Below, in pieces: positions 21,804 through 45,695 of a stretch of DNA of 64,000 nt (its first letter is position 1; the number at the start of each line of letters is the position of its first letter). The stretch comes from Candidatus Methylomirabilota bacterium (GTDB lineage Bacteria; Methylomirabilota; Methylomirabilia; Rokubacteriales; CSP1-6). The stretch covers positions 6,236 through 70,235 of the forward strand of contig DASQAK010000052.1 in NCBI GenBank assembly GCA_035635755.1, given 5' to 3'. The translations under genes and the position numbers were made by a program. The notes below the pieces were generated by a model that was not told the DNA's origin, made no database searches, and saw only the letters and a list, made by a program, of their open reading frames with translations.

Positions 21804-22786
21804 CGCGACCCCGCTTCCGATTCGTGGCGCAGGCGATACCAGGCGAAGGTCTCGCGCACGCCCGCCTCGAGGGAGACCTTGGCCACGAAGCCCGTGAGCT
21901 CGCGAAGGCGCCCGATGTCGGGACAGCGCCGGGCGACCGACCCCGCGGGCGCGGCCACCCGCTCGAGCCTCGGCGCGAATCCCGCCTCTCTCAGCACGAG
22001 GCTCGCCAGATCCTCTATCCGCGTCTCCTCCGTGTCGTTGCCGATGTTCACGACCCGGCCCGAGGCCGCCGGTGTGGCCATGAGCCTGACCATGGCCTCC
22101 ACGGCGTCCGAGACGTGGCAGAAGGCGCGGCGCTGATCGGTGCCGTAGACGCGGAAGGGGTCCTCGCGGCGGAGCGCGCGGAGCGACAGCTCCGGGATGA
22201 CATGATCGGCGCCCATGCGCGGCCCGTACACGTTGTGGAAGCGCCCGATGACGGACGGGAGCGCGCGGGCGCGGGCGGTGTGGATCACCGCCGCTTCCCC
22301 CAGGATCTTGCTCGCCGCGTAGGCGAAGCGAGGCGCGGCCACGTCGGGCACGGACAGCGGCACGTCCTCGGGGGTGGGCACCGCCACCGTGCCCGCCGAC
22401 ACGCCGCCCGCATAGGTCTCGCTCGTCGAGGCGAAGAAGAGCATGCCGGCCTCGGGCGTGAGCCAATCGAGCAGGCGCATGAGGGCGAGCGTGTTGGTGC
22501 GGATCACCCGCGCGGGGTCGGTCTCGACGTTGCGCACGCCGACCACGGCCGCCAGCATGTAGACGGAGTCCCACCGCGCGGGCAGCTCCCGGAGCGCGTC
22601 CTCGCGGGTGAGGTCGGCCTGGACCAGGGTCACGCTCGGCCGCCCGCAGAGGGCTTCGATCTCTCCGTCCCGTCGGCCGCGTGAGAAGTCGTCGACCAGG
22701 GTGAGGGCGTGGCCCTCGGCGGCGAGGCGCGCGGCCAGGTGGTAGCCGATGAACCCCGCTCCGCCCAGGATCAGCGTCCTAGCCAT
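21800..22786 (-). CDS. NAD-dependent epimerase/dehydratase (extended SDR)
   Basis: 328 aa; 'LILGGAGFIGYHL', 'YAASKILGE' (YxxxK). Confidence 0.8.
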   Translation of the reverse strand: MARTLILGGAGFIGYHLAARLAAEGHALTLVDDFSRGRRDGEIEALCGRPSVTLVQADLTREDALRELPARWDSVYMLAAVVGVRNVETDPARVIRTNTLALMRLLDWLTPEAGMLFFASTSETYAGGVSAGTVAVPTPEDVPLSVPDVAAPRFAYAASKILGEAAVIHTARARALPSVIGRFHNVYGPRMGADHVIPELSLRALRREDPFRVYGTDQRRAFCHVSDAVEAMVRLMATPAASGRVVNIGNDTEETRIEDLASLVLREAGFAPRLERVAAPAGSVARRCPDIGRLRELTGFVAKVSLEAGVRETFAWYRLRHESEAGSR

Positions 22787-24071
22787 AGCCGATCCCCGCG
22801 TAGCGCACGCCCGCCCCGCGGACGGTCTCCTCGTCGAGGATGCGCCAGGCGTCGTAGAGGACGGCGGACCGGCGCAGGCGCGGCAGGAGCCGGCCTAGGT
22901 CGAGCTTGGCGTACTCGGGATGGTTGGTGACCACGAGCACCGCGTCCGCGCCGTCGAAGGCCGCCTCCGCCGTGACCGGCTCGGCACCGAGGCCGCGGAT
23001 GATGTCCGCTCCCACCAGGTAGTCGTGACCGCGAAGAGAGAGCCCGGCCGCGCGGAAGAGGGGGAGCATGGGCACGATGGGCGCGCCGCGCATGTCGTCC
23101 GTGGGCGGCCAGCCCTTGTAGGCCCAGCCGAGCACGGAGAGCCGCGCGCCCTCCGCGCTTCCGCGCGCGGACCGGATCATGGCCACGAGCCGCTCGGCGA
23201 CGTGGCCCGGCAGGTGCTCGTTGAGCCCGCGCGCCTGCCCGACCAGCCATGGCGTGTAGCCCGTCGCCCGCGAGGCGCTGATCAAGATGTACGGATCCTT
23301 GGACAGGCACGCCCCGCCCACGAAGCCGGGCTTGGCGAGGTCGGGGCGCGGATAGTCGACATTGGAGGCCCGGATGACTTCGAGCGGATCGAGCCCCCAC
23401 CGCTCGGCCACGAGGGCGATCTCGTTGCCGTAGGAGTAGATCAGGTCCGTGTGGCAATTGTTCGCGAGCTTGACCAGCTCCGCCGCCTCGAGCGAGGAGA
23501 CGGAGACCACGCGGCGGGTCACCCGCTCGAAGAGCTTGGCGGCCGCGCGCCCGCTCTCGGGATCGAGGCCGCCCACCACCTGCGGAAGCTCCTCGAGCTC
23601 GCGCAGCGCCTGTCCCTGGATGGTCCGCTCGGGCGCGAAGGCCAGCCTCGCGTGTCCCCAGGCCGAGAGCAGCTCGGGCAGGACCACGGCGCGGCTCCCT
23701 CCCACGGGCACCGTGCTGCGCACGATCACGAGCGTGTCGGGGGCGCAGCGCTCCGCCACGTGGCGCGCGGCGGCCCGCAGATTGCCGAGCTCGGGCCCGC
23801 GCGTCTCCGGATTGACCGGCGTGGAGACGCAGATGATGGCGGCCTCGACCCCGCGGGCGGGCAAGACGGAGGCGACGTGGAGACGATCGCCCAGAAACGT
23901 GCCGAGTCCCTCGTCGAGCCCGGGCTCGTAGAGGTGCGGCCGGCCCTGGGCGAGCGCGTCGAGCACGGCGGGCGAGGTGTCCACGCCGTGCACGATGAAG
24001 CCCTTGCGCGCAAGCGTCACCGCCAGCGTGAGCCCCACGTAGCCCAGCCCCACCACCCCGACCGTAGTCAT
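22779..24071 (-). CDS. nucleotide-sugar dehydrogenase (UDP-glucose/GDP-mannose dehydrogenase family; WbpA/WecC-like)
   Basis: 430 aa; N-terminal 'VGVVGLGYVGL', catalytic-Cys motif 'GFVGGACLSKD'. Confidence 0.85.
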   Translation of the reverse strand: MTTVGVVGLGYVGLTLAVTLARKGFIVHGVDTSPAVLDALAQGRPHLYEPGLDEGLGTFLGDRLHVASVLPARGVEAAIICVSTPVNPETRGPELGNLRAAARHVAERCAPDTLVIVRSTVPVGGSRAVVLPELLSAWGHARLAFAPERTIQGQALRELEELPQVVGGLDPESGRAAAKLFERVTRRVVSVSSLEAAELVKLANNCHTDLIYSYGNEIALVAERWGLDPLEVIRASNVDYPRPDLAKPGFVGGACLSKDPYILISASRATGYTPWLVGQARGLNEHLPGHVAERLVAMIRSARGSAEGARLSVLGWAYKGWPPTDDMRGAPIVPMLPLFRAAGLSLRGHDYLVGADIIRGLGAEPVTAEAAFDGADAVLVVTNHPEYAKLDLGRLLPRLRRSAVLYDAWRILDEETVRGAGVRYAGIGYG

Positions 24072-24074
24072 GGC

Positions 24075-25124
24075 CTAGTCGAGCAGTCCCTCGGCCACGT
24101 CACGATTGGCCTTCTCCAGATCGGGGAGGCGGCCGACGTCCAGCCAGTACTCGCGGATCAGGTACGCCGCCACCACACGCTCCCGATCGAGGAGCGTCCG
24201 GATCATGTCCGTGGCGTCGAAGTACTCGCCCGCCGGGATCACCTCGACGGCCGAGGGATCGAGGAGATAGATGCCGGCATTGACGGGGAACTCCTTGCGC
24301 GGCTTCTCCTCGACGCGGGTCACACGCTCACCGTGGAGCGTGAACTCGCCATACGGGATGTCGACCTGGTGGGTGGAGACACCGACCGTCATGGCCGCTC
24401 GTCCCTGCCGCCGGTGAAACTCCCACATCGCGCGAAAGTCGCACCTGGTCAGGACATCGGCATTGACCACGAAGAAGGGCTGGCGCAGCCGCTCCCGGAG
24501 GAGGAGGAGCGCGCCCATCGTTCCGAGCGGCTTGGGCTCGAGGGCGTAGCCGATGCGAACGCCGAGCCGGGCGCCGTCGCCGAGCCGCTCCCGGATTATC
24601 TCCGACTTGTGGTGGAGCGCGATGGTGATGTCGGTGATCCCCGACTGGCGCAGGCGCTCGATCATGATCTCGACGAGCGGTCGGCCGCCCACGAGAACGA
24701 GCGGCTTGGGCGTGGACTCCGTGAGCGGCCGGAGCCGCTGCCCTTCCCCGCCCGCCATGATCACGGCGGGTGTGGGCAGGGGCGGCGCGGCGATCTGCTC
24801 CTCGAGGAAGAGCACGTCCACGAGCCGCCGGCCCGCCTCCACGAGAGGCAGGTGGCGGATGCCCCGCGCGAGCATGAGCTCCACGGCGGCCGCGCGCCCG
24901 AGGCCGGGCGAGGCGGTCACGGGCACGGGGTTCATGATGTCGGCGACGCCGCCGTCGAGCGGCACGCCTCGCAGGATGGCGCGGCGCAGATCGCCGTCCG
25001 TGACCATGCCGACGAGGACGCCCTCGGCGTCGGCCACGAGAACGGCCTGCCGGCCGTTCTTGGTGATCGCCTCGAGTGCCTCGCGGAGCGAAGCCCTTGG
25101 GCTGGTCACCATATTGGGGTTCAC
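24075..25124 (-). CDS. CBS-domain-containing sugar-phosphate nucleotidyltransferase
   Basis: 349 aa. N-terminal tandem CBS pair. C-terminal 'AVIMAGGEGQRLRPLTESTPKPL' NTP-transferase G-loop. Architecture resembles GlcN-1-P guanylyltransferases of legionaminic-acid pathways (inference). Confidence 0.75.
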   Translation of the reverse strand: MNPNMVTSPRASLREALEAITKNGRQAVLVADAEGVLVGMVTDGDLRRAILRGVPLDGGVADIMNPVPVTASPGLGRAAAVELMLARGIRHLPLVEAGRRLVDVLFLEEQIAAPPLPTPAVIMAGGEGQRLRPLTESTPKPLVLVGGRPLVEIMIERLRQSGITDITIALHHKSEIIRERLGDGARLGVRIGYALEPKPLGTMGALLLLRERLRQPFFVVNADVLTRCDFRAMWEFHRRQGRAAMTVGVSTHQVDIPYGEFTLHGERVTRVEEKPRKEFPVNAGIYLLDPSAVEVIPAGEYFDATDMIRTLLDRERVVAAYLIREYWLDVGRLPDLEKANRDVAEGLLD

Positions 25125-25199: not shown

Positions 25200-25700
25200 C
25201 TAACCCCCTGGGCCGAGCCGCCAGAGCTTCTTGATCGCCCTGAACGGTAAGGAGACGAGCCGGCCCTTGAAGGTCAGCACGAAGCGGCCGTCCACCCCGA
25301 CGATATACCCCGCCCAGGCTAGGGTCTCGAGACGCCCGGCCAGGGTCTCTTGCACCGGATAGCGACGCCGGATCTGCTCCCGGGAGAGGCCGTGAGGCGC
25401 CGCGCGGACCTCGATCACGAGCTGGACGGACTGAGAGGCCGCCAAGGTGTAGTAGAAGGGCATGTAGAGCAAGAAGCTGCACGCGACCACGACCATTCCG
25501 TAGACCGCGCGCCACCGGTCGACGTCGAGGAGCAAGCACGTCCACAGGGTGGCGACGGCGGCAAGCGCGAACAGCAGCGTCACGGTGCGAGCCCTGTGCT
25601 CGACCCGCGCGAAATGAAAGATCGCAAAGTGCACGACCACGGCCGCCGCGGTCCACGCCGCGCCCGCGCCGAACGCCGTGCCGAGCGCGTCGGGATTCAC
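25200..25700 (-). CDS. hypothetical small membrane protein (paralogue A)
   Basis: ~166 aa from GTG overlapping upstream stop. Hydrophobic N-terminal half, soluble C-terminal domain. Confidence 0.4.
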   Translation of the reverse strand: MNPDALGTAFGAGAAWTAAAVVVHFAIFHFARVEHRARTVTLLFALAAVATLWTCLLLDVDRWRAVYGMVVVACSFLLYMPFYYTLAASQSVQLVIEVRAAPHGLSREQIRRRYPVQETLAGRLETLAWAGYIVGVDGRFVLTFKGRLVSLPFRAIKKLWRLGPGG

Positions 25701-26236
25701 TGCGGCGTCTCGATCTGAAGGAAGGCGCGGAGTCCGCCGAACAGGCGCGCGGCGCGCGCGCCCTTGGGGGTGGCCAGGAGGCAGCCGGCGCGCTCCACCA
25801 TCAAGCGGGTGGAGAGGAGCCCGTCGATCCGCTTGTCGAGCATCCACCCCATGCCGAGCCCGCCGCCGTAGGCGGCTTCTTCCTCCTCAGGCGAGAGCGC
25901 GCGTCCGGGAGATTCGTCGATGTCGACCAGAATACGAAGCGAGAACCCTCGCTCGGCCAGGTTGTAGACCTGCAGCCATCCCCCGAAGAAGAGCGTGGCG
26001 TGGACGAAGAGGCCGAAAGCGCCGCACAGGAAGCTGCGTGGCTCGACGAGCCACTCGGGCAGGAGCCAGAGATCGGCCGGCGTCAGGGCGTAGGCCGCGA
26101 CGTAGAGCGGGATCGTGGCCAGGAAGATCCCCAGCATCGCGGCGGCCCGGCGGCGGACATCGACGATGCGGAAGACAACGGTGACGGCGGCCACGCAGAG
26201 CAGCGAGCTGGCGGCGGCGAGGAGAAGACCCTTCAC
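25697..26236 (-). CDS. hypothetical small membrane protein (paralogue B)
   Basis: 179 aa; four predicted TM helices plus a C-terminal soluble domain. Confidence 0.45.
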   Translation of the reverse strand: MKGLLLAAASSLLCVAAVTVVFRIVDVRRRAAAMLGIFLATIPLYVAAYALTPADLWLLPEWLVEPRSFLCGAFGLFVHATLFFGGWLQVYNLAERGFSLRILVDIDESPGRALSPEEEEAAYGGGLGMGWMLDKRIDGLLSTRLMVERAGCLLATPKGARAARLFGGLRAFLQIETPQ

Positions 26237-26248
26237 CCCCGGCGCGTC

Positions 26249-26923
26249 CTACGCCTGCTCGCTCCACTTGCGGAAGTCCCCGAGGAACTGGTCCACCGCC
26301 TCCGTCGTCTTCGGGTGCTGGGTGAGCGCCGGAAAGAACTTCGGCGGCACCGTGACGATATGGGCGCCGGCGCCGAGCGCCTCGTTGACGTCGGCGATGT
26401 GACGGATGCTGCCCACGATGATCTCCGACCGGATGCCGCCCTCGCGGAAAGCCCGCGCCGTCTGCTCCACGACGGACCGGGCGTCGTAACCGATGTCCTT
26501 GATGCGACCGTAGAAGAGGCTCACGAAGTTGGCCCCCGCCAGCGCCGCCATGTACGCCTGATTGAAGGACATGCAGCAGGTGCAGTTGACCATGATGTCG
26601 CGCTTGCGGAGCTCGGCCACGACCTTGAGCTCCCCCCAGCCTATGGGCACCTTGACGCTGAGCATGGGATAGCGGAAAGCCGAGACGAACTTGAGCGCCT
26701 GATCGAGCATCTCCGCGGGATCGTCCACGAACACCTCGACGGACAGCGGCACCTCGCGCCCGTGGCGGCGGATCAGCCCGATGATCTTGTGGATGTGCTC
26801 CGTGAAGTCGGTCCGCTCCTCCTTCGCCAGGATCGAAGGGTTGGTGGTGATGCCCGCCACGAAGCCGCGCGCGAGCGACTCCTCGATCTCCGCCAGGTTC
26901 GCCGAGTCCACGAAGAGCTTCAT
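26249..26923 (-). CDS. transaldolase / fructose-6-phosphate aldolase family protein (Tal/FsaA-type)
   Basis: 'MKLFVDSANLAEI...GITTNPSIL' signature. Strong RBS GGAGAG. ATGA overlap with gmhB stop. Confidence 0.8.
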   Translation of the reverse strand: MKLFVDSANLAEIEESLARGFVAGITTNPSILAKEERTDFTEHIHKIIGLIRRHGREVPLSVEVFVDDPAEMLDQALKFVSAFRYPMLSVKVPIGWGELKVVAELRKRDIMVNCTCCMSFNQAYMAALAGANFVSLFYGRIKDIGYDARSVVEQTARAFREGGIRSEIIVGSIRHIADVNEALGAGAHIVTVPPKFFPALTQHPKTTEAVDQFLGDFRKWSEQA

Positions 26924-27453
26924 GACTCTCCTCTCGTGAGGGTCAGGATGGTCGCGACGGCCTCGCGCAGGTCGGCCGCGCGGTGGTCCGGCCGCGCCGG
27001 ACCTTCCTCGCGCCCCGCCACCAGGATGGTCACGCACTCCGCCGCTCGTCCGGCGTCCACGTCCCGGTACCGGTCCCCTATCATGAAGGAGCGCGCGACG
27101 TCCACTCCCCATTCGCGCGCGGCCTGGAGGAGGAGCCCCGGCTTCGGCTTGCGGCAGCTGCAGCGATCCGCATCCCGATGGGGACAGACGTAGACCGCGT
27201 CCACGCCGGTCTCGCGACGCAGTCGCTCGTGCATGGCTTCGAGGATGGGCACCGACAGCTCACCCGTCGCCAGCTCGGGCTGGTTCGTGACCACGAGCGA
27301 GAGCAGGCCGATCGCGCGCAGACGGGCCACGCTGTCGGCTGCCCACGGATAGATCTCGAAGGTCTCGAGCCCGAGCGGCGCTCCCCAGCGACCGCCGCGC
27401 TCGACCATGGGATTGAGCACTCCGTCACGGTCGAGAAACACGGCGCGTTTCAT
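26920..27453 (-). CDS. gmhB: D,D-heptose 1,7-bisphosphate phosphatase (HAD-IIIA)
   Basis: From 'MKRAVFLDRDGVLN'. 'VVTNQ' and 'GDRYRD' HAD motifs. Confidence 0.75.
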   Translation of the reverse strand: MKRAVFLDRDGVLNPMVERGGRWGAPLGLETFEIYPWAADSVARLRAIGLLSLVVTNQPELATGELSVPILEAMHERLRRETGVDAVYVCPHRDADRCSCRKPKPGLLLQAAREWGVDVARSFMIGDRYRDVDAGRAAECVTILVAGREEGPARPDHRAADLREAVATILTLTRGES

Positions 27454-28067
27454 CGCCGCGCGAGACCCTCGCCGCCCGCGATGCGCTCGGCCAGGCAGAA
27501 CGCGATCAGGTGATGCAGCACGACGTGGAAACCCTCCACGTGGGGGGTCGTCTCGTACGGCACCACCACGCAGACGTCGCACACCTCACGCATGGCGCCC
27601 CCGTCGAAGCCGGCAAGCCCTATGGTGGTGCCTCCGCGCTCTTTCACGTACGCGATGGCCTTCATGAGGTTCTGGGACCATGCGCCGGCCTTGTCGCGAC
27701 CCGTGCCGCCGTGCACGCTGATGGTCACCAGGACATCCCCCGGCCGATAAAAGGTCGCGAGCTGCTCCGTATAGACATTGTCCCAGCCATCGTCGTTCAC
27801 GAGCGCGCTCACGAGCGGGATATTGTCGACGAGACTCATGGCGCGCAGCCGTGCTCGTCCCGGAATGGACGTCATCTTGTTCAGATCGGCGGCCAAATGC
27901 GTGGCCGTGCCGGCGGAGCCGCCATTGCCCGCCGTGAAGACCGTGCGCCCGTCCCTCCAGGCCTGGTACAGCGCCTCGATCGCCCGGTCGATGTCCTCGC
28001 GGGAGACCTTCCGGGCGATCTCCTCCACACCCTGAAGGAACCGATCGATATAGGCGCCGTTCTTCAC
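27450..28067 (-). CDS. gmhA: phosphoheptose isomerase (SIS domain)
   Basis: ~205 aa from GTG overlapping upstream stop; 'TAGNGGSAGTATHLAADL' SIS motif. Confidence 0.75.
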   Translation of the reverse strand: MKNGAYIDRFLQGVEEIARKVSREDIDRAIEALYQAWRDGRTVFTAGNGGSAGTATHLAADLNKMTSIPGRARLRAMSLVDNIPLVSALVNDDGWDNVYTEQLATFYRPGDVLVTISVHGGTGRDKAGAWSQNLMKAIAYVKERGGTTIGLAGFDGGAMREVCDVCVVVPYETTPHVEGFHVVLHHLIAFCLAERIAGGEGLARR

Positions 28068-28930
28068 GAGAGCCGCTCCTTCAGGCTCCCGTCCGGCAGA
28101 TGGACCGGATTGATTCGCCGCATGGTATAGACCTCCGAGCCGGTGATCTCGTCGAGGTGCGCGCGGAAACGCTCGCTCCGCCACGGATCGAACCCCGCCG
28201 CTATGGTCTTGCCCGTCAGCCCGTCAGCCTCGGGCGAGAGCAGGAACTCGACGCAGGCCACCGGCACCTCCATGGGCACGCCCCCTCGGGCCATGGCCGC
28301 CTCGGTGCGCTCGAAATGCTCGCGCCCCGCCCGGTCAGGTCCGGCGCGCAGCGTCGCCTCATGGATCTCGGTGGCGACCATGCCGGGCGCGACCGCATTG
28401 ACCGCTATGCCCCGGCTCTTGAGCTCTTCGGCCAGGCATTCCGTCAGGCGCACGAGGGCGGCCTTGGACGTAGCATACGCGCTGTAGCGCGGAAACGTGC
28501 CGAATGCGCCGCCCCCCGAGAAGGTGATGATGCGCGAGCGCTCGCCTCGCTCGAGAAGCGGGAGGGCGTGCTTGATCAGGAGATAGGCGCCGAAGACATT
28601 GTCCCGCAGGGTGGACCACCAGGCGTCGCTGTCTGTCTTCTCCACGGGTCCGATGGCCCCGAAGGCGCCGGCGCAGAAGACGACGGCGTCGAGAGCTGGG
28701 ACCTCGGCGGCCACCCACCCGACCAGCGCGCGCACTTGGCTCTCGTCGCCGACGTCGCAGGCGCGGGAGCGCGCCAATGTGTCGCCCTCCGTGACGGCGC
28801 TGAGCGCGGCGACGCGGCGCGCGCAGGCGAAGACCGTGTCTCCACGCGCGGCAAGCGCCCGCACCAGAGCCGCGCCGATTCCGGCGCTGGCCCCCGCGAT
28901 GAGGATCCGGCGGCCCGTCACTACGTCCAT
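28064..28930 (-). CDS. SDR-family oxidoreductase
   Basis: 'ILIAGASAGIGAAL', 'YATSKAAL' (YxxxK). Confidence 0.75.
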   Translation of the reverse strand: MDVVTGRRILIAGASAGIGAALVRALAARGDTVFACARRVAALSAVTEGDTLARSRACDVGDESQVRALVGWVAAEVPALDAVVFCAGAFGAIGPVEKTDSDAWWSTLRDNVFGAYLLIKHALPLLERGERSRIITFSGGGAFGTFPRYSAYATSKAALVRLTECLAEELKSRGIAVNAVAPGMVATEIHEATLRAGPDRAGREHFERTEAAMARGGVPMEVPVACVEFLLSPEADGLTGKTIAAGFDPWRSERFRAHLDEITGSEVYTMRRINPVHLPDGSLKERLS

Positions 28931-30225
28931 GGCGACTCGCCGATGGTTACTCGCGTGAGACCCGCCCGTCGGCAGCGCGCGCCGTCCAGCACTCCGGCCG
29001 CGTCCACCACCACGAATGATCGCAGCCGCTCCTTGAGAGCGGACGGGTCCACCGTGGCGAACTCGTCCCAGTCGGTGAGAATGACGAGGGCATCGGCGCC
29101 CTCGGTCGCCTGGAGGGCGCTCGACGCCATCAGGACGTCCGCGGTGGGCGGGAGCGTCACCTGCGGGTCATATGCGGTGACGACGGCGCGGCCGGCCAGA
29201 TCTCGCAGGAGCCTCAGGCTGATGGCGTTCTTGGTCGACCGGCTGTTCTTCTTGTACGCGAGCCCCCACAGGGCGATGCGCGGCCGCATCCCGGCGCGGA
29301 GGACGTGGCGATCGACGGCCCGCGTGAGCCACGCGTAGCGCGCGGCGCTCCGCTCGAGGATGAGAGCCGGAAGCCCTGCGTCTGTGCCATGGCTCGCCGC
29401 AAGCTCGCGCAGTTGGACGAGGTCACGCTCGAGATTGCCGCCCGCCAGCCCCAGTCCCGGACGGATATAGGCGTGGGGACCGATCCGTCGATCGCTCCGG
29501 AGCGCAGGCAGCATGGCCGTCATGCTCGCCCCCGTCACCTCGCAGAGATCCGCCAGGGCATTGGCATAGGTCACGGAGGCGGCGAGGTAGAAGTTGATGG
29601 CCGCCTTGCAGAGCTCCGCGCTCTCGTAGTTCATGCGGATGGCGGGGCAGCCGAATCGGGCCACGAGGGCGTCGAGGGTGGGCTCGGGCGCATGGTCGGT
29701 CTCGGGCCCGCCCAGCCAATCGGGCCCGCCCAGAATGATGCGCTCGGGCCTGAGATAGCGCGCGACGGCCTCACCGATGACGAGCGTCTCGACCCAGTAG
29801 TAGAGGCGCGACCGCAGATCGGGCCGCTTCTCGCGGAGACGCCCGGCGAGCGTCCGCGTATAGCCAACGGGTACCTGGCTCATGAGGGCGACCACCCCAT
29901 CGGCGGGCAGCCATGGCAGGGCCTGGTCGACATGGCGCTCGAGCTCCGACAGGTCGGCCCGGTTCTCGTCGTCGGTGACGGTGTCCAGCGCGACAATGAT
30001 CGTCTCTGCTCCCTCGAGGGCGCCGAAATCACCGCTGAACGTGGGTGGCGTGCGAGCCAGAAGGTCCGTGAGACCGGGTTCATCGACGGGCAGCGTCCCA
30101 CTGGCGAGCGCCGTGGCCCGCGCGGTGTCGCCGACCGCCATCACCTCGAAGCCCATGGACGAAAGACAGGCGCTCGTCACGAGGCCAAGGTGAGAGAGAC
30201 CGACGACACCGATCCGCTCCGTCAC
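28921..30225 (-). CDS. UDP-glucose/GDP-mannose dehydrogenase-family protein lacking the catalytic cysteine
   Basis: N-terminus 'IGVVGLSHLGL...EPGLTDLL' matches the family. The position of the canonical 'GGxCxxKD' motif reads 'GLAGGNLERD' (no Cys, Lys to Arg). GTGA overlap with upstream stop. Confidence 0.7.
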   Translation of the reverse strand: MTERIGVVGLSHLGLVTSACLSSMGFEVMAVGDTARATALASGTLPVDEPGLTDLLARTPPTFSGDFGALEGAETIIVALDTVTDDENRADLSELERHVDQALPWLPADGVVALMSQVPVGYTRTLAGRLREKRPDLRSRLYYWVETLVIGEAVARYLRPERIILGGPDWLGGPETDHAPEPTLDALVARFGCPAIRMNYESAELCKAAINFYLAASVTYANALADLCEVTGASMTAMLPALRSDRRIGPHAYIRPGLGLAGGNLERDLVQLRELAASHGTDAGLPALILERSAARYAWLTRAVDRHVLRAGMRPRIALWGLAYKKNSRSTKNAISLRLLRDLAGRAVVTAYDPQVTLPPTADVLMASSALQATEGADALVILTDWDEFATVDPSALKERLRSFVVVDAAGVLDGARCRRAGLTRVTIGESPWT

Positions 30226-31148
30226 GGCCCGCTCTTCGCCGAGGCCTGAGCGAGGAGGGAGCGGATCGCCTCCGCGATGCGCCAGTCGTTCTCGAGCGAG
30301 CTCTCTCCCGCTCGCGCGCGCCGCTCGAACTCGTCGAGGTCCGCCTCCCAGGTGACATCGCCCGCCGGCTGTTCCTCGCGCCGCTCCTCCGGAACACCGC
30401 TCGGCAGCACCCGCGTGCGACGCAGCAGGGTAACCCCGCCCCACTTGCCCAGGCCATCCAGGTGCAGCGAGCCCGCGCTCCCGAACACCTCCACCCGGAA
30501 CGTGTTCTTCCAGAAGACATTGCCGACCTCGAGGAAGACCCGGCGATCGACGGAGGTGAAGACCCCGTAGTCGAAGGTGCCCGACTCGACCGGCCGCAGG
30601 TCCAGGAGGGCGTAGCGCTCGCGCTCGTGGCCCAGGAGATAGCCGCAGAGGTCGAGGAGGTGGCAGCCGAGGTCCTCCAGGACCCCGCCGCCGGATTCGC
30701 GCCAGGTGCCGAGCCACTCGCGCACGGTGCCATTGCCGTAGAGCATGCGCACGCGGTCGAGCTTGCCCACGGCGCCCGCGTCGAGCAGCTGCTTGAGCCG
30801 CATGATCGAAGGCTCGAAGCGGTGATTGTACGAGGTATACCAGACGGCGCCGCTGCGCGCGCGGGCCGCGAGTGCCTCCGCTTGGTCGCGGCTCGAGAAG
30901 AGGAGCGGCTTTTCCACCAGGACCGGCTTGCCTTCCGCGAGGAAGCGGCCGACATAGTCGACCTTGGTGGGATTCGGGGTGGCCACGATCACCGCGTCGT
31001 ACGCGTCGGGGTCGACCTCGTCCACCGCCCGCACGGTGGCCCCGGGCGCCACTGGATCCACCGTGGCGGCGCAGCGCGCCCCCAGAAGACGCGCGCGGCG
31101 CCTGCCGATGTTGCCGAGGCCGACGACGAGATAGCGGAGAACGCCCAC
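30222..31148 (-). CDS. Gfo/Idh/MocA-family oxidoreductase
   Basis: 308 aa; 'LRYLVVGLGNIGRR', 'EKPLL' motif. Confidence 0.8.
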   Translation of the reverse strand: MGVLRYLVVGLGNIGRRRARLLGARCAATVDPVAPGATVRAVDEVDPDAYDAVIVATPNPTKVDYVGRFLAEGKPVLVEKPLLFSSRDQAEALAARARSGAVWYTSYNHRFEPSIMRLKQLLDAGAVGKLDRVRMLYGNGTVREWLGTWRESGGGVLEDLGCHLLDLCGYLLGHERERYALLDLRPVESGTFDYGVFTSVDRRVFLEVGNVFWKNTFRVEVFGSAGSLHLDGLGKWGGVTLLRRTRVLPSGVPEERREEQPAGDVTWEADLDEFERRARAGESSLENDWRIAEAIRSLLAQASAKSGP

Positions 31149-31155
31149 CGTCGGC

Positions 31156-32691
31156 TCAGGCCCCGGCCGCGGCCCGCTTGAGGGCGTCGAGCTTGTCCTC
31201 GACCTCGGCGATGACGACCGGCACGTTGCCCGGGCGCTCGCAGGCCACGGCGGCGGCGAGACTGCCGAGGATGCTGGCGATGACGATGCTGCCCGACTGC
31301 GCCAGGGCCAGGGTGGCCATGGCCAGCAGCGCGTCGCCGGCGCCGATAGGGTCGACGAGATTGCCGACGAAGCTGTCCACGATGAAGAACTCGCGGGGCA
31401 TCCGGCCCGGGCTGCGATAGGTCAGAATGCCGCGCTCACCAAGCTTCAAGATCAGGTAGCGGCAGCCTGCGCGCTGGAAGAGGGTCTGCGCCATCGGGCG
31501 CACGCCCGAGTCCTGGTCTCCGAGGCCGAAGCGCGCCTCGCGCTCGTTCGGCGTGATGAGATCGAATCCCTGAAAGTCCAGGATATTGCCCCAGCGGTTC
31601 GACACCTGACTGTCGGCCGCGCGGAGCACGCCCGGTCGCACCGCCGCCGCGTATTCCTCGATCGTCGAGCGATGGAAGATCCCGTGCCGGAAGTCGCTGA
31701 AGATGACGACGTCCGCCGGGTTTCCCTGAATGGCGTCGACGATCTCGCGCCGCAGCCGGTCGGACACGATGTGGTTGTCGACCCGGTCGACCTGGAGCAT
31801 CCGATGATGATCGGCGATGAACCGCTCCTTGAGGGTCGTGGGCCGGCTGGCGTCGACGAGGGCCCGCGTCGCCACCCCGGTGGCGGCCAAGTCGTCGACC
31901 ACGAAGGCCCGCAGCTCGTCGTCGCCCAGGACGGTCGTAAACGACACCTGGGCTCCCACGCTGTGGACGTGCTTGGCCACCACGGCGGCGCCGCCCACGA
32001 AGGTGTCGGCGTGCTCGAACCTGAGGCTGAAGCTCGGGGACTTGGCGCTCTGGCCGAGGAGCGAGCAGTACGAGTAGCGGTCCACGATGGTGTCGCCCAC
32101 GACGTGCGCGCGGACGCGGCCGAGATCGTGAAGGGTCGCCCGGAGCTGATCGAAGGTGACGCCCTCCGACTGCAGCAGCGTGATGAGCTTGTCGACGGTG
32201 AGCCGGGGCTCGTGCTGGGTGATGATCGTGCTCGACGAGTAGACGACGTCGCCGGGCGTGAACACCATCTCGCCGCCGTACGCCTCGAGCGCGCCGACCT
32301 CCTCCTGCGTCTTGGGCGGCAGCGGACTCGTCTGATACTCGAAGCCCTTGGCGAAGAAGTCGGGCTGGACGATCCGGATGCTCTCGATCGGAGTCTCGTT
32401 GGGGTCGATGACAACATAGTCCACGAACTCGAGCGCGGCCAGGTTGGCCGCGCGGAGCTCCTGCGGCACGTAAGGGCGGTAGGCGCCCTTGGAGATGTGG
32501 GCATCGGCCGTCACGCTGGCGATGAGGACGTCCGCCTTCTCCTTGGCGTACATGAGATGGCGCAGGTGACCGGGATGGACGATGTCGAAGGTGCCGTGAC
32601 ACATGATGGCCGTGCGCTTCCGAGGACGAGGGCCCAGGAGGGTCGCCAGCTCCTCGCGGGTCTTGATCTTGTGGGCGAACTTTTCGTACAT
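31156..32691 (-). CDS. bifunctional sugar-1-phosphate nucleotidyltransferase / PfkB-family sugar kinase (HldE/RfaE-like with reversed domain order)
   Basis: Start at 'MYEKFAHK' (GGAG RBS). N-terminal cytidylyltransferase domain 'IMCHGTFDIVHPGHLRHL' (HxGH). C-terminal PfkB kinase with 'DPIGAGDALLA'. Confidence 0.75.
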   Translation of the reverse strand: MYEKFAHKIKTREELATLLGPRPRKRTAIMCHGTFDIVHPGHLRHLMYAKEKADVLIASVTADAHISKGAYRPYVPQELRAANLAALEFVDYVVIDPNETPIESIRIVQPDFFAKGFEYQTSPLPPKTQEEVGALEAYGGEMVFTPGDVVYSSSTIITQHEPRLTVDKLITLLQSEGVTFDQLRATLHDLGRVRAHVVGDTIVDRYSYCSLLGQSAKSPSFSLRFEHADTFVGGAAVVAKHVHSVGAQVSFTTVLGDDELRAFVVDDLAATGVATRALVDASRPTTLKERFIADHHRMLQVDRVDNHIVSDRLRREIVDAIQGNPADVVIFSDFRHGIFHRSTIEEYAAAVRPGVLRAADSQVSNRWGNILDFQGFDLITPNEREARFGLGDQDSGVRPMAQTLFQRAGCRYLILKLGERGILTYRSPGRMPREFFIVDSFVGNLVDPIGAGDALLAMATLALAQSGSIVIASILGSLAAAVACERPGNVPVVIAEVEDKLDALKRAAAGA

Positions 32692-32701
32692 GACGCTCCG
32701 G

Positions 32702-33694
32702 CTAGCCCAGGTACTTGAACCAGTCCCGCGTGGCCTGGGCAATGGTGTCCACCGTCCACACGGGCGCCGCGCGCCAGTCGTCGATATGGTCGAGCATGAT
32801 CTTGACGCCCTCCTCGAAGCTCACCGTGGGCTCCCAGCCCGTCGCGCGTCGGATCTTCGAGATGTCGGCATGCGTGCGGTCGGGCTCCCCTGGCCGCTTC
32901 GGAACATGCACCGTGGGCCCGCCCAGGAGCTCTACCAGGCGATTGACGCTCTGGGGTGCGCCCGCGCCCACGTTGAACACCTCGCCGGCCGAGCGCGATT
33001 GCGCCGCGAGGAGATTGGCCCGCGCCACGTCGGTGACGAAGACGAAGTCGCGGGTCTGCGTGCCGTCACCCACTATCGTGAAGGGATGACCATTGAGCTT
33101 CTGAGCAAGAAAAACACCGAACACCGCCCCGTAGGTGCCTGACGTTCGCGAGCGGGGACCATAGGCATTGAAATACCGGAGCGACACGACGGGGAGGCGG
33201 TAGACCTGCCCCCAGTGGAGGGCCATGGTCTCGCCCAGATACTTGCTGAGGGCATACGGATATTCAGTACGGATCGGCGCCGTCTCCGGCGTGGGATGGA
33301 CATCCGAGATGCCATAGCATGACGACGAGGCGGAATAGATGAACCGCTCCACGCCGGCCGTCCTCGCCGCCTCGAGCGCCCCCAGCGTGCCCATGACGTT
33401 GGCGCGCAGGTAGCGCTCGGGGTGTTCGATCGACGGCACGATATCCGCAAGAGCCGCGAAGTGGAAGACCCAGGCCGCCCCCGCGAACTCCGAGGCCATG
33501 CGCGCGCCGTCGCAGACGTCTGCCGCGACCACCTTGAGCTGGGGGGAGCCGCGATGGTGGGCGAGGTTGTCGGGACGGCCCGTGCTGAAATCATCCACCG
33601 CCACCACGTCGTGGCCTTCCGCGAGCAGGAGGTCGACCATGTGGCTCCCGATGAAGCCGCCCCCGCCCGTGACCACGCTCCGGCGACGCGCCAA
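32702..33694 (-). CDS. NAD-dependent epimerase/dehydratase (extended SDR)
   Basis: '[12 protein letters not shown]', 'YALSKYLGE', 'RYFNAYGPR'. Confidence 0.8.
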
Positions 33695-33747
33695 CGCTAG
33701 CTGGCTCGGAGGGCTCGTGGGGGACAGGAAATCACCTGGACAAGCTC

Positions 33748-34746
33748 CTAGCGCAACCCGGCCGCCTGGATGGCCTTGACGTTGTAGTACTCGATGGCGC
33801 CGACGGGATCGGGCACCTTCCCCGCGGCGAAGGCCCGGCAGAGATCGCGGACGGCGTCCTCGATGGTGCGCTTGGGAACAAAGCCGAGCTCTCGCCGGAT
33901 CTTCTCCGAGGAGATGTGATACGAGCGCAGGTCATCGGACGGCGTGGTGACGATCTCCACCTCCTCGCGGCCCGGCACTTCCCGGCTGACCACGTCGCGT
34001 ACGATGGCGGCGATCTCGGCCACGGTGTGATTCTGGTAGCCGGCATTGAAGGTCTTGCCCGCGATGAGGCCATCGGGCACCTCGAGCAGCATGGCGTAGA
34101 GGTCGCACACATCGTCGATGTGGATGTTCGGCCGGCGCTGGCTCCCGCCGAAGACCGTGATCTTCCCGTTCACCAGGGCCGACATGGTCAGGATATTGAC
34201 GGTCAGATCGAGCCGCAGCCGCGGCGAATAGCCGCAGACGGTCGCGGGCCGGATCGTCACCGTCGTGAACCCGGGCGCTTGGTGCTTGAAGAGCAGCGGC
34301 TCGCACAGGCCCTTGTACTTGTTGTAGTCGGTGAGCGGCACCAGCGGGTGCTCTTCGGTGACGTTCTCCGCGTCGCTCACGCCGTACACGCTCGATGTCG
34401 AGGCGTAGATGAAGCGCCGCACTCCGGCCTCCAGGGCCGCCGTCACCATGGGCTCGAAGCACTCGAAGTTGATGGTGCGGCTCAGCCGGGGATCGAGCGC
34501 GAAGCTCGGATCGTTGGAGATGCAGGCGAGATGGATGACCGCCTCGTGCCCTGGAAGCACGCGCCGCAGGAGGGCTTCGTCGCGGATGTCGCCGGTGATC
34601 CGCCGGAGCCGGTCGGAGTCCGCAGGCAGATGATCGCCGAAGAGAAACAGGTCGAGCGCGGTCACGTCGTGCCCCGCCTCGAGAAGGCGCGGCACCAGCA
34701 CCGTGCCCACGTATCCCGCGCCGCCCGTGACGAAGACGCGGCTCAC
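33748..34746 (-). CDS. NAD-dependent epimerase/dehydratase (extended SDR)
   Basis: '[11 protein letters not shown]', 'YNKYKGLCE'. Confidence 0.8.
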
Positions 34747-35471
34747 AGCTGACCGACCGATGTGAGCATGCGACGTCTCGCCACCCGGAGCGCCCAGAAC
34801 GTGGTGATAACGGTCTTGGCCACACTCAAGAAGTTGCGCAGGCTCAGCGCCCGCGACCGCCGAGCGGCGGCCTCATCGATGGGGACACCCACCTCGACCA
34901 CCGACAGTCCCGCATCGATGGCCTTGAGCAGCGTCTCCGCCTGAAATCCAAACCCCCAGGTCGTGACGGGGCGGGTCAGCAAGAACTGACGCGGGTAAAC
35001 CGACAGGCCGTTGAAGTATCGCATCCGGAGGCCGAAGAGGGCGTTCAGGGTCGTGGTGTAGGCCGTCGATATGACACGCCTGAATCCCACCCGCACCTCG
35101 GGGTTCGTGGCGTACGAGGTGACCACATCGGCCTTCCCCATATGGCGCAGGATCTCGCCGATCGAGTCCTCCGGCCATGTGTTGTCTCCGGGAACGTAGA
35201 CAAAGTGAGACTTTCTCGCCTCGCGCACCCCGCGCGCATAGCTGTAACCGAGCCCCATGTTGCGCAGGTTCTCGACGACGCGAACCCGCGGCTGCGTCCT
35301 CGCGAGCCGCGTGGCCACGGCCCCCGTCCCGTCCGTGCTTCCGTCGTTCACGATGATGATCTCGAAGTCCTCGCACACGCCGGCCACGACGCGAATCAGC
35401 TGCCGTACCGTGGCCTCGAGATCCCGCTCCTCGTTCAGGGCCGGCACCAGGACCGAGAGCGAGTGGGCCAT
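34743..35471 (-). CDS. glycosyltransferase family 2 (polyprenyl-phosphate glycosyltransferase-like)
   Basis: 242 aa; 'LSVLVPALNEERDL...EIIIVNDGSTDGT'. Confidence 0.75.
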   Translation of the reverse strand: MAHSLSVLVPALNEERDLEATVRQLIRVVAGVCEDFEIIIVNDGSTDGTGAVATRLARTQPRVRVVENLRNMGLGYSYARGVREARKSHFVYVPGDNTWPEDSIGEILRHMGKADVVTSYATNPEVRVGFRRVISTAYTTTLNALFGLRMRYFNGLSVYPRQFLLTRPVTTWGFGFQAETLLKAIDAGLSVVEVGVPIDEAAARRSRALSLRNFLSVAKTVITTFWALRVARRRMLTSVGQL

Positions 35472-36505
35472 CAGTAGGGCCCCTGGAAAGCGGATACTTC
35501 CGGAGCGAATTCCGGAAGGATCGACACGTCGCGATCGAGGCTACGGAGACACTCCGCGGCAATGGTGTGGCGATCCGGGTAGAAGGCTCTCTCCAGCGGC
35601 ACCGAGACGGGAGCCGGACAGTCCGCGAGCCCTATGCGCCGGACGGGCGACTTGAGATGTCCCAGAGCGCTCTCGGCGCAGATCGCGGCCACCTCCGCCG
35701 ATAGGCCAAAGGCGAGCCAGCTCGTATCGGCGACAACGACGCGGCCCGTCTTTCTCACCGATCCGAGAATCGTCTCCGCATCGAGGGGACGGATGCTGCG
35801 GCAGTCCACGATCTCGAGACTGATGCCCAGTGGAGCGAGCAGATCGGCGGCGCGCATCGCTTCCACGAGCATCAGCGACACTGCGACCACTGTGAGGTCG
35901 CGGCCTTCCCTGACGATGGACGCCGTGCCGAGGGGCGTCGGCTCGGGAGCTTCCGGCACGGGCCCGCGCGTCTCGTAGAGCGCGCGGTGCTCCAGTATGA
36001 CGACGGGCGCCCGCGCCTGGAGAGCGGCCAGGGTCAGGCCTTTGGCGTCCCGGGGTAGAGCGGGCATGACAACGTGGAGCCCGGGGAAATGCCCGAAGAG
36101 CGCCTGGAGGCTCTGGGAATGTGTCGCGCCCTGCCCCCATCCTTTCCCGACGATGGAACGGACGACTATCGGCACGCTCGACGCCCCACCGTACATGTAG
36201 CGCCACTTCGCCGCCAGGTTGATCATCTGGTCCGTCGCGAGAAACATGAAATCATTGCGCGCGTGCACGACGACGGGACGCTTGCCCATGGCCGCGGCCC
36301 CTATCGCGACCCCCGTGAGGGCCTGTTCGGCTATGGGCACGTCGAAGACTCTGGCCCGGCCGAATTTTTCGTAGGCGGGGCGGGTCGTTCCAAAGATCCC
36401 CTTGTGATCATCGACGCCGATTCCCATGATGAACACATCCGGATCCTGCGCCATTCCCTGAACGAGGGCCTCGGCGATTGCCTCCGCGTATGTGCGCGTG
36501 CGCAT
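35471..36505 (-). CDS. ThDP-dependent 2-oxoacid dehydrogenase E1 component, beta subunit (transketolase-like)
   Basis: 344 aa; 'FIMGIGV', 'RVFDVPIAEQALTGVAIGAA', C-terminal TK_C-like domain. Confidence 0.85.
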   Translation of the reverse strand: MRTRTYAEAIAEALVQGMAQDPDVFIMGIGVDDHKGIFGTTRPAYEKFGRARVFDVPIAEQALTGVAIGAAAMGKRPVVVHARNDFMFLATDQMINLAAKWRYMYGGASSVPIVVRSIVGKGWGQGATHSQSLQALFGHFPGLHVVMPALPRDAKGLTLAALQARAPVVILEHRALYETRGPVPEAPEPTPLGTASIVREGRDLTVVAVSLMLVEAMRAADLLAPLGISLEIVDCRSIRPLDAETILGSVRKTGRVVVADTSWLAFGLSAEVAAICAESALGHLKSPVRRIGLADCPAPVSVPLERAFYPDRHTIAAECLRSLDRDVSILPEFAPEVSAFQGPY

Positions 36506-36516
36506 GATCGCTTCCG

Positions 36517-37557
36517 CTAGTATACGTTCTTGAGGAGATCGCGCGGATCGGGCCAGGGCGCCTGCTTGGCCTCCGCCACCGCCTTGGCGATCTCCTCGGC
36601 GATCTGCGACTCGAACTGTTGGAAGGTCGCGCTGCTCGCGAGCCCGCGTGCTTTCAGCGCCTTGGCGCTCCGCTTGACGGGATCCCTGCGCTTCCAGGAT
36701 TCGATCTCACGCGCGGTCCGATAGCCGCGCTCAGAGTCATCCAGGGGGCCGACGTGCTCGAGCCAACGATACGTCGCGCACTCGAGGAAGACCGGCCCCC
36801 GGCCCCCCCGGCACTGCGTCACCGCCCGCCGGGCGCTGCGGTACACCGCGTACACATCATTGCCGTCGAGCTCCTCCGCGGACATCTCGTACATCTGGGC
36901 GCGTCGGTAGATCTCGGTGCCTCGAGGGAGCCGGACAGACAGCGGCGAGTGCGTGGCATACAGGTTGTTCTCGCACACGAACACCACGGGCAGGCGCTTG
37001 ACAGCCGCCCAGTTCAAGCTCTCGTGAAAGACGCCTTCGTCAACCGCGCCATCGCCGAAGAACGTCACGGCGACCCGCGAGGATCCGTCCATCTGGAACG
37101 CGAGCGCGGATCCCACGGCGACGGGGATTGTCTGAGCGAGGATGGCGGAGGCCGCCACCATTCCCACGGACATGTCGCTCAAGTGAACGGAGCCGCCTCG
37201 GCCGCGAGCCGCCCCACTCTCCCGCCCATAGAGCTCGGCCACGAGCGCCGCCAGATTGCCCCCCTTGGCCAGATAGTGCGCATGGCAGCGGTGTCCGCTG
37301 AAGACGACGTCGTCGGACCGGAGGGCGGCACACATTCCGACCGCCACCGCCTCTTGTCCGACGGAGAAGTGCGTCGGAGTACGCATTTCCTGCTCTTTGT
37401 AGAGCTCCGCCAGCTTCTCCTCCACGCGCCGCGCGCGCAGGAGCTCGAAGTGCAGGCGCAGGCTCGACTCAGCAGACAGCCCTCGAAGAGACGACCCGTC
37501 GACCCGGCGTGCAGCCCGGGCGGAGCGCCTGGCCCTCGGCCGCTTCTTCCCCGTCAT
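36517..37557 (-). CDS. ThDP-dependent 2-oxoacid dehydrogenase E1 component, alpha subunit
   Basis: 'RRVEEKLAELYKEQEMRTPTHFSVGQEAVAVG', 'GDGAVDEGVFHESLNWAA' (ThDP GDG motif). 30-aa basic N-terminal extension may not be translated. Confidence 0.8.
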   Translation of the reverse strand: MTGKKRPRARRSARAARRVDGSSLRGLSAESSLRLHFELLRARRVEEKLAELYKEQEMRTPTHFSVGQEAVAVGMCAALRSDDVVFSGHRCHAHYLAKGGNLAALVAELYGRESGAARGRGGSVHLSDMSVGMVAASAILAQTIPVAVGSALAFQMDGSSRVAVTFFGDGAVDEGVFHESLNWAAVKRLPVVFVCENNLYATHSPLSVRLPRGTEIYRRAQMYEMSAEELDGNDVYAVYRSARRAVTQCRGGRGPVFLECATYRWLEHVGPLDDSERGYRTAREIESWKRRDPVKRSAKALKARGLASSATFQQFESQIAEEIAKAVAEAKQAPWPDPRDLLKNVY

Positions 37558-44960: not shown

Positions 44961-44966
44961 GGCTCG

Positions 44967-45692: not shown

Positions 45693-45695
45693 CCG

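Follow-up and report, generated by a model that had tools for sequence, protein, structure and literature searches.

What does an enzyme make that carries the two domains of the heptose-activating protein HldE in reverse order, and to which pathway does it belong? This question is raised by a locus of Candidatus Methylomirabilota bacterium (assembly GCA_035635755.1, contig DASQAK010000052.1, positions 6,236 to 70,235), a stretch of 64,000 nt with ~70% G+C that was analysed as a whole and is called here the window. Glycan-biosynthesis genes on the minus strand form one long run from ~14 kb to 52 kb of the window. Within this run, seven minus-strand genes at 26249-32691 show start/stop overlaps of 4-10 bp and are translationally coupled. 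In order of transcription they code for a 511-aa fusion of an N-terminal nucleotidyltransferase and a C-terminal PfkB kinase (31156..32691), a Gfo/Idh/MocA NAD(P) oxidoreductase directly downstream of it (308 aa, 30222..31148), a protein of the UDP-glucose/GDP-mannose dehydrogenase family (434 aa, 28921..30225, with three UDPG_MGDP_dh domains in Pfam; UGDH-like hereafter), a classical short-chain dehydrogenase/reductase (SDR; 288 aa, 28064..28930, Pfam adh_short), a GmhA-like SIS-domain ketose-phosphate isomerase (205 aa, 27450..28067, SIS_2), a GmhB-like HAD-IIIA sugar-bisphosphate phosphatase (177 aa, 26920..27453, Pfam HAD hydrolase), and a short-type transaldolase (224 aa, 26249..26923, TAL_FSA E 5e-41). 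An earlier, sequence-only reading had described these genes as a nucleoside diphosphate (NDP)-heptose module; all seven are present where it had placed them, and a Pfam search confirms the family assignment of each.

We found that the fusion is a clean permutation of HldE, with the same two domains in opposite order. Pfam detects CTP_transf_like at aa 31-157 (E 1.6e-12; residue numbers refer to the window fusion throughout) followed by PfkB at aa 197-488 (E 7e-22), and BLASTP against E. coli K-12 HldE returns two non-collinear blocks, as expected from the reversed order claimed by the sequence-only reading: residues 9-159 match HldE 322-470 with 35% identity (E 4e-20), and residues 183-499 match HldE 1-310 with 23% identity (E 3e-15). 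From these matches, PDB sequence searches and an alignment of homologues, we place the nucleotidyltransferase domain at ~aa 25-160 (32212..32619, minus strand) and the kinase domain at ~aa 190-500 (31192..32124, minus strand). Among NCBIfam models, the kinase half scores best with rfaE_dom_I (E 4e-44), ribokinase being next at 9e-11, and the other half with rfaE_dom_II (E 7e-26), ahead of TagD/glycerol-3-phosphate cytidylyltransferase at 8e-8. In the PDB, the closest sequence to the kinase half is the Burkholderia heptose-7-phosphate kinase HldA (E 4e-21, the next PfkB protein at 1e-8), and that to the nucleotidyltransferase half is the heptose-1-phosphate nucleotidyltransferase HldC (5x9q, E 2e-17). 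An AlphaFold (AF2) model of the fusion, built on 39 homologues and with a mean predicted local distance difference test score (pLDDT) of 82.7, also retrieves HldA first in Foldseek (E ~1e-24, template modelling score 0.83), other PfkB kinases following at 1e-18 or worse. The N-terminal half is therefore related to true nucleotidyltransferases, and the kinase is closest to a heptose kinase by both sequence and fold and is not ribokinase-like, two points on which the sequence-only reading could have failed.

The catalytic motifs of both domains are intact. H39-P-G-H42 in the nucleotidyltransferase and G233-G234, N382..E385 and G450-x-G452-D453 in the kinase are invariant in the 39 homologues, so that the HxGH and GAGD motifs quoted previously are real. 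The C-terminal motif of the nucleotidyltransferase domain reads GDVVYSSS where E. coli HldE has FEDGCSTT, and its Y151, S152 and S153 are conserved among homologues. Residues 147-162, which hold this Y-S-S-S motif, are the least confident part of the model (pLDDT <50) and probably form a mobile nucleotide-binding loop. Concerning the gene boundaries, gene calls on two independent soil-metagenome contigs with an identical fusion give the same limits and the same 511-aa product, and the start is an ATG at 32691 with a GGAG 6 nt upstream.

At the same time, the fusion misses all the equivalog cut-offs for HldE and its halves (NF008454, 159 vs 521 bits; TIGR02198, 151 vs 345; TIGR02199, 91 vs 181.5). 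The same holds for the GmhA-like isomerase (gmhA TIGR00441, 91 bits vs a cut-off of 209) and for the GmhB-like phosphatase (111 vs 178 bits). Since the core enzymes lie so far below these values, they would be paralogues and not orthologues of the ADP-heptose enzymes. The heptose connection made by the sequence-only reading is partly supported: both halves of the fusion are closest to heptose enzymes, and all four core enzymes fall well short of the heptose equivalogs. Judged by these relationships, the fusion is a real HldE-like kinase/nucleotidyltransferase and a predicted order-swapped paralogue of HldE.

The reverse order holds well beyond the window and is not a local oddity. An HMMER scan of 1.84 billion cluster representatives (threshold E<=1e-30) returned 1178 clusters, the best 150 of which are all collinear with the fusion over their whole length, down to 28% identity, which indicates that the order-swapped form is a large and old family. 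A word-indexed search retrieved thousands of close relatives of ~511 aa, the majority of them in metagenomes of soil or groundwater (Methylomirabilota, Chloroflexota), and these currently bear only the names 'rfaE bifunctional protein' or 'PfkB family carbohydrate kinase'. In a scan of GTDB with one genome per species, we confirmed at least 573 fusion loci in more than 12 phyla plus one archaeon. The best 80 of these loci have 52-75% identity to the window fusion and belong to Verrucomicrobiota, Omnitrophota, Myxococcota, Bacillota, Planctomycetota, Chloroflexota, Methylomirabilota, Alpha-, Beta- and Gammaproteobacteria, Acidobacteriota, Actinomycetota, Elusimicrobiota, Bipolaricaulota and a Thermoplasmata archaeon. 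Cultured carriers include Bradyrhizobium liaoningense NBRC 100396 and Azospirillum sp. TSO22-1. Such high identity across phyla indicates horizontal spread. Found in the genomes of hundreds of species and among thousands of proteins from metagenomes, and tied to a constant set of unusual tailoring enzymes (see below), the family appears to mark an uncharacterised surface-sugar pathway that has moved between phyla.

The archaeal locus (L051 in our numbering; contig JAHWGK010000001.1 of a Thermoplasmata metagenome-assembled genome, MAG) has a fusion at 52% identity together with a transaldolase, HAD, Gfo, UGDH-like, DegT and NeuB genes, and would mean that the genes have passed from one domain of life to another, unless the contig was misbinned. 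The organism labels of six other loci (L008, L035, L052, L028, L029, L011) look wrong and are unreliable; they include Akkermansia muciniphila, Bordetella parapertussis, Enterobacteriaceae and Bifidobacterium MAGs.

To which genes is the fusion linked? We searched the six-frame open reading frames (ORFs) of 87 fusion loci with the proteins of the window, and counted components in the 49 loci where the fusion is flanked by 9 kb or more on either side. A recurrent order emerges, SIS - HAD - transaldolase - EPI_A - EPI_B - fusion - Gfo - UGDH-like, where EPI_A and EPI_B are two SDRs of the epimerase type, and this core is often followed by a further SDR, a 217-aa methyltransferase, two DegT-family enzymes, a two-subunit thiamine enzyme and a small family-2 glycosyltransferase (GT2). 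The most constant members are EPI_A (45/49 loci), the UGDH-like protein (44/49), and Gfo and EPI_B (41/49 each); they are followed by the extra SDR (37/49), the methyltransferase and the thiamine enzyme (36/49 each), HAD and transaldolase (32/49 each) and SIS (30/49). The complete SIS-HAD-transaldolase block stands upstream of the fusion in 31 of the 60 loci that have 6 kb or more of flanking sequence. At this high G+C, where antisense ORFs abound, grouping stop-to-stop ORFs by single linkage gave noisy clusters and served only to spot the methyltransferase.

The window carries a variant of this arrangement, in which both epimerases, the GT2 and an E1 alpha/beta pair lie upstream of the fusion (32702-37557). 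All are on the minus strand: directly upstream is EPI_B, a GalE-like SDR epimerase/oxidoreductase (32702..33694), followed by EPI_A (33748..34746), the GT2 (34743..35471; 16/49 loci), and the E1 beta-type (35471..36505) and E1 alpha-type (36517..37557) subunits of a thiamine-diphosphate enzyme. Direct reading of the sequences shows epimerase-type and not dehydratase-type active-site motifs in EPI_A and EPI_B, and the weak best matches of the GT2 are the polyprenyl-phosphate glycosyltransferases DPMS, GtrB and ArnC. The classical SDR of the window, a variable member found in 6/49 loci, stands in place of the DegT pair, and the methyltransferase is absent. The functional unit therefore includes the seven genes of the sequence-only reading and reaches ~5 kb past the end that it had flagged, taking in the two epimerase-type SDRs, the GT2 and the E1 pair. 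The SDR, the UGDH-like protein and Gfo, encoded between the GmhA-like isomerase and the fusion, do not interrupt the module; the last two are among its most constant components. On this comparative evidence, the fusion is the fixed centre of a cassette for a putative 7- or 8-carbon nucleotide sugar, spread over more than a dozen phyla.

Some further genes recur around it. In most cassettes of other phyla, an SDR of ~285 aa and a class I methyltransferase of 217 aa come right after the UGDH-like gene (L083 13811-15312; L054 5923-6645), and the window lacks both. A NUDIX hydrolase recurs near the fusion in close and distant members (L074 8577-9260, L083 20648-21160, L088 17284-17721, L091 21664-22239), and may regulate the pool by hydrolysing nucleotide sugars.

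Three components of the cassette are informative about its chemistry. The catalytic Cys of UDP-glucose dehydrogenase forms a thiohemiacetal and a thioester and is needed for the second oxidation. The UGDH-like protein has a GGNLERD motif where the UDP-glucose dehydrogenase 4a7p has GGSCFPKD, which bears out its earlier label of a Cys-less dehydrogenase homologue. Among 78 cassette orthologues, all with this fixed motif, the Cys position is occupied by Asn in 76 and by His in two. Having lost the catalytic Cys, the protein would be unable to make a uronic acid in two steps and must have another role.

The transaldolase had been read as a transaldolase/FSA-like entry enzyme, of which only the first part stands: it scores 138 bits against B. 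subtilis Tal (3r8r) vs 44 bits against E. coli FSA, and it has Glu and Phe (in SVEV and SLFYGR) where FSA has Gln59 and Tyr131. An entry by an FSA-type fructose-6-phosphate aldolase is ruled out by these catalytic residues and scores. The catalytic set of Asp (Asp6 in the window), Glu, Lys and Phe is kept in all 58 cassette transaldolases. In most other phyla the enzyme is of the TIGR02134 subtype, above the cut-off of that model, and that of the window is Tal-like, which suggests that two subfamilies were recruited to the same position.

The thiamine enzyme is likewise of two types, a PDH-E1-type alpha/beta pair in 19 of the 49 loci and a split transketolase (Transketolase_N plus Transket_pyr/C) in 17, never both together. 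Examples of the latter lie at 16252-18213 of L062, 14152-15893 of L088 and 5710-7478 of L092. In the window, the E1 pair is stand-alone, without E2 or E3, inside a nucleotide-sugar cluster.

What would such a cassette make? The reading that we favour, with a rough probability of 45%, is that it makes NDP-heptose by the HldE route and that the sugar is then heavily tailored. The transaldolase would supply the ketose phosphate, with as working assumption sedoheptulose-7-phosphate from fructose-6-phosphate and erythrose-4-phosphate. The GmhA-like isomerase would convert this to the aldose 7-phosphate, the C-terminal PfkB domain of the fusion would phosphorylate the anomeric hydroxyl to give a 1,omega-bisphosphate, and the GmhB-like phosphatase would take off the distal phosphate to leave the 1-phosphate, which the N-terminal nucleotidyltransferase domain would join to a nucleoside triphosphate (NTP). 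In a presumed order of tailoring, the two GalE-like SDRs would act on the NDP-sugar, as might the classical SDR in the window variant; Gfo and the UGDH-like protein, with Cys replaced by Asn, would act together and probably stop at a carbonyl; the E1 alpha/beta enzyme probably adds a two-carbon unit to the NDP-sugar; and the small GT2 probably hands the tailored sugar on to a surface glycan, the putative acceptor.

The choice of a heptose as working assumption follows from the fact that all four core proteins have heptose enzymes as their closest relatives, and that sedoheptulose-7-phosphate is a product of both transaldolase and transketolase in pentose-phosphate chemistry. It is also supported by the fact that the transaldolase shares an operon, in which stops overlap starts, with the GmhA-like and GmhB-like enzymes. 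Several observations weigh against it. The core scores are low (151 vs 345, 91 vs 181, 91 vs 209 and 111 vs 178 bits), the nucleotide-binding motif GDVVYSSS departs from FEDGCSTT of HldE, and we know of no heptose cluster that carries a transaldolase; as sedoheptulose-7-phosphate is a central metabolite, a dedicated transaldolase is hard to justify.

How does the fusion compare with characterised systems? With HldE/RfaE it shares the two domain families, the HxGH, GG, NxxE and GAGD motifs and the linkage to GmhA-like and GmhB-like genes. It differs in the reversed domain order, in the identity of only 35% and 23% and scores below half the equivalog cut-offs, in the replacement of the STT motif, and in lying among tailoring genes, whereas HldE belongs with lipopolysaccharide (LPS)-core genes. 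A recent cross-kingdom survey described mono-domain, di-domain (kinase/nucleotidyltransferase) and tri-domain (isomerase/kinase/nucleotidyltransferase) heptose nucleotidyltransferases, and tied an Arg at the fifth position of the STT motif (STTR5) to broad NTP use, according to the commentaries on it (Tang et al., Science 2024; PMC11573728, PMC11461863). The fusion would count as di-domain in that scheme, the reverse order going unmentioned in these two commentaries, and its family has a conserved Tyr at the STTR5 position, so that the rule, as they summarise it, predicts no nucleotide for it. Whether such an enzyme is specific for ADP or for CDP or UDP is a question that extends to the fusion. 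The nucleotide used and the range of sugars, on which the fusion family bears, are both questions raised by that survey as the commentaries present it.

NDP-heptoses serve as building blocks of cell-envelope glycans and also act as innate-immune agonists, which ALPK1 senses. The activation chemistry proposed here is familiar; what is new is the architecture of the fusion, the constant company of a transaldolase, a thiamine enzyme and a UGDH homologue without Cys, and the identity of the putative sugar. Our literature search found no description of the reverse-order fusion or of the cassette. An E1 alpha/beta pair inside a nucleotide-sugar cluster recalls AviB1/B2 of avilamycin and the paulomycin pathway (PMC4753412), with the difference that a split transketolase replaces the E1 pair in about half of the cassettes.

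The closest parallel at the level of the whole pathway is the lincosamide sugar of Streptomyces lincolnensis, where LmbR makes octulose-8-phosphate, LmbN isomerises it, LmbP phosphorylates, LmbK dephosphorylates and LmbO forms GDP-octose, which the epimerase LmbM, the 'dehydrogenase' LmbL, the NAD(P) oxidoreductase LmbZ and the aminotransferase LmbS convert to GDP-lincosamide (PMC12945683, PMC4351081). Within the literature that we reached, this is the only characterised pathway that clusters a transaldolase with GmhA-like and GmhB-like enzymes, and it shares with the cassette a logic in which a transaldolase and a GmhA-like isomerase come first, an anomeric kinase, a GmhB-like phosphatase and a nucleotidyltransferase then activate the sugar, and an epimerase, a 'dehydrogenase'/oxidoreductase pair and an aminotransferase follow. 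The Lmb kinase and nucleotidyltransferase are not fused, however, and the product is an antibiotic, whereas the cassette lies in surface-glycan islands.

This parallel opens the tentative but real possibility that the cassette makes an octose and not a heptose. The transaldolase would then be LmbR-like and transfer a C3 unit from fructose-6-phosphate or sedoheptulose-7-phosphate onto ribose-5-phosphate to give octulose-8-phosphate; SIS would be LmbN-like, PfkB would form the 1,8-bisphosphate, HAD would be LmbK-like, and the nucleotidyltransferase would yield NDP-octose. The epimerases would be LmbM-like, Gfo and the UGDH-like protein would act as LmbZ and LmbL in a 6,8-dehydration to a 6-keto-8-deoxy sugar, and the last step would be a reduction by the SDR in the window or a transamination by the DegT pair in most other loci. 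Seven of the nine lincosamide steps are matched by cassette families (transaldolase, isomerase, phosphatase, epimerase, 'dehydrogenase' L, NAD(P) oxidoreductase Z and aminotransferase), a parallel at family level only (PMC12945683, PMC4351081). The kinase and nucleotidyltransferase fall outside it: LmbP, the C8 kinase, and LmbO, the C8 guanylyltransferase, are put in other families, although the cited papers name both by function only (PMC12945683, PMC4351081). An octose would account for a transaldolase that is conserved beside SIS and HAD with its catalytic set always kept, and for core enzymes that all lie well below the heptose cut-offs. The UGDH-like protein and Gfo are the most constant partners of the fusion, and the former, without the Cys needed for acid formation, would have a new function, a further point in favour of this reading. 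We take LmbL to be of the UGDH family and LmbZ of the Gfo/Idh/MocA family. Against an octose, about a quarter of the well-flanked loci have no nearby transaldolase, and the recruitment of two transaldolase subfamilies fits any generic transaldolase reaction, including the supply of sedoheptulose-7-phosphate required by the heptose route. Moreover, to our knowledge octoses are almost absent from bacterial surface glycans, Kdo-type acids apart. The broader proposition that the cassette represents a widespread pathway to an NDP-activated C8 sugar (lincosamine-like, 8-deoxy or amino) or to a thiamine-extended or branched derivative, destined for surface glycans, is less likely than not but a fair possibility; if true, the lincosamide sugar pathway would be a specialised offshoot of the cassette, and the order-swapped HldE its beta-anomer kinase/nucleotidyltransferase.

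The distant members of the family bear on the possibility of a different substrate altogether. At ~30% identity, fusions occur in Leptospira (including Leptospira weilii), annotated as 'RfaE domain I' or 'ADP-heptose synthase', in a Brocadiaceae MAG, on a plasmid of Azospirillum oryzae KACC 14407, and on plasmid pDCAR1 of Solidesulfovibrio carbinolicus, where the fusion stands between NeuB-family and SIS genes inside a pseudaminic-acid cluster; Leptospira species and A. oryzae KACC 14407 are thereby cultured carriers of the wider family. The four distant loci examined are without transaldolase, HAD, Gfo and UGDH-like genes, and the missing HAD phosphatase counts as one more point against the tailored-heptose route. 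All four have a split transketolase or an E1 pair, and three have SIS, the exception being Brocadiaceae; NUDIX, radical-SAM and methyltransferase genes are also frequent there. From this survival of partners, the deepest conserved partnership would be that of the fusion with the thiamine enzyme, usually together with SIS. The two-subunit thiamine enzyme, and not the transaldolase, might accordingly be the entry point and build an unusual ketose phosphate for activation by SIS and the fusion, or the two halves of the fusion might act on different molecules, and the persistence of SIS and either thiamine enzyme down to ~30% identity speaks for the former. We consider this improbable. In the main cassette, the thiamine enzyme is grouped with the genes for late steps (those of a dehydratase-type SDR and the DegT pair) and not with SIS, HAD and transaldolase, and a PDH-E1-type enzyme acting with pyruvate would give 1-deoxy-ketoses, which are unusable by an aldose-ketose isomerase. 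E1 alpha/beta pairs are also reported to add two-carbon branches to NDP-keto sugars, in avilamycin and paulomycin (PMC4753412). Least probable by far is that the locus encodes a housekeeping route to the ADP-L-glycero-D-manno-heptose of the LPS inner core, the swapped domain order being merely cosmetic. Records at JGI and some at NCBI do name homologues 'rfaE bifunctional protein' or 'ADP-heptose synthase', but the scores are less than half of the HldE equivalog cut-offs, the gene lies inside a variable glycan island between legionaminic-acid genes, and the fusion invariably occurs with tailoring enzymes that have no part in making core heptose. The cassette is also found in monoderm lineages and an archaeon, with 52-64% identity across phyla, pointing to horizontal transfer. 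As for the product, a higher branched sugar of the erwiniose or caryophyllose type was rejected, as these are made by another enzyme route, in which YerE-type thiamine enzymes use long keto acids as donors and a 3,6-dideoxy-4-keto-hexose as substrate (PMC9306805), and not by one of the GmhA/HldE type.

In the window, the cassette is embedded in a gene set for a legionaminic-acid-type nonulosonic acid, which occupies 20637-25112 and 40185-46748. The first part includes a LegC-family aminotransferase, a dehydratase-type SDR, a Cys-containing NDP-sugar dehydrogenase and a CBS-domain nucleotidyltransferase, and the second a NeuC-like protein, NeuB, a CMP-sugar synthetase (CTP_transf_3), an acetyltransferase resembling PglD and another member of the Gfo/Idh/MocA family. 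In L042, L051, L082 and L092, too, the fusion has NeuB-family genes nearby. Two genes of this set were considered as members of the module and rejected: the DegT aminotransferase (20637-21779), a possible equivalent of LmbS, is LegC-family (461 bits vs a cut-off of 420) and belongs to the legionaminic-acid genes, other cassette loci having their own DegT pair, and the CBS nucleotidyltransferase (24075-25112) occurs in only 2-4 of the 49 loci.

Right after the transaldolase gene, gene calls give two small hydrophobic ORFs of 179 aa and 166 aa (25200..26236, minus strand), with no Pfam match and present in only three other loci; these may be membrane or flippase-like partners. At 38593-40188 lies the gene for a PMT_2 (ArnT-like GT-C) membrane glycosyltransferase and at 19022-20509 that for a polysaccharide deacetylase, and neither is conserved with the cassette elsewhere in the 87-locus survey. 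Taken together, PMT_2, deacetylase, GT2, DegT, dehydrogenase and the two hydrophobic ORFs recall the parts list of the 4-amino-4-deoxy-L-arabinose (Ara4N; Arn) lipid-carrier system. Upstream of the nonulosonic acid genes, 46676-49226 codes for two proteins, one of 550 aa (B12-binding radical SAM) and one of 337 aa (MptE-like/Maf-type); after these two genes come those for a MarR regulator and a Wzx-type flippase.

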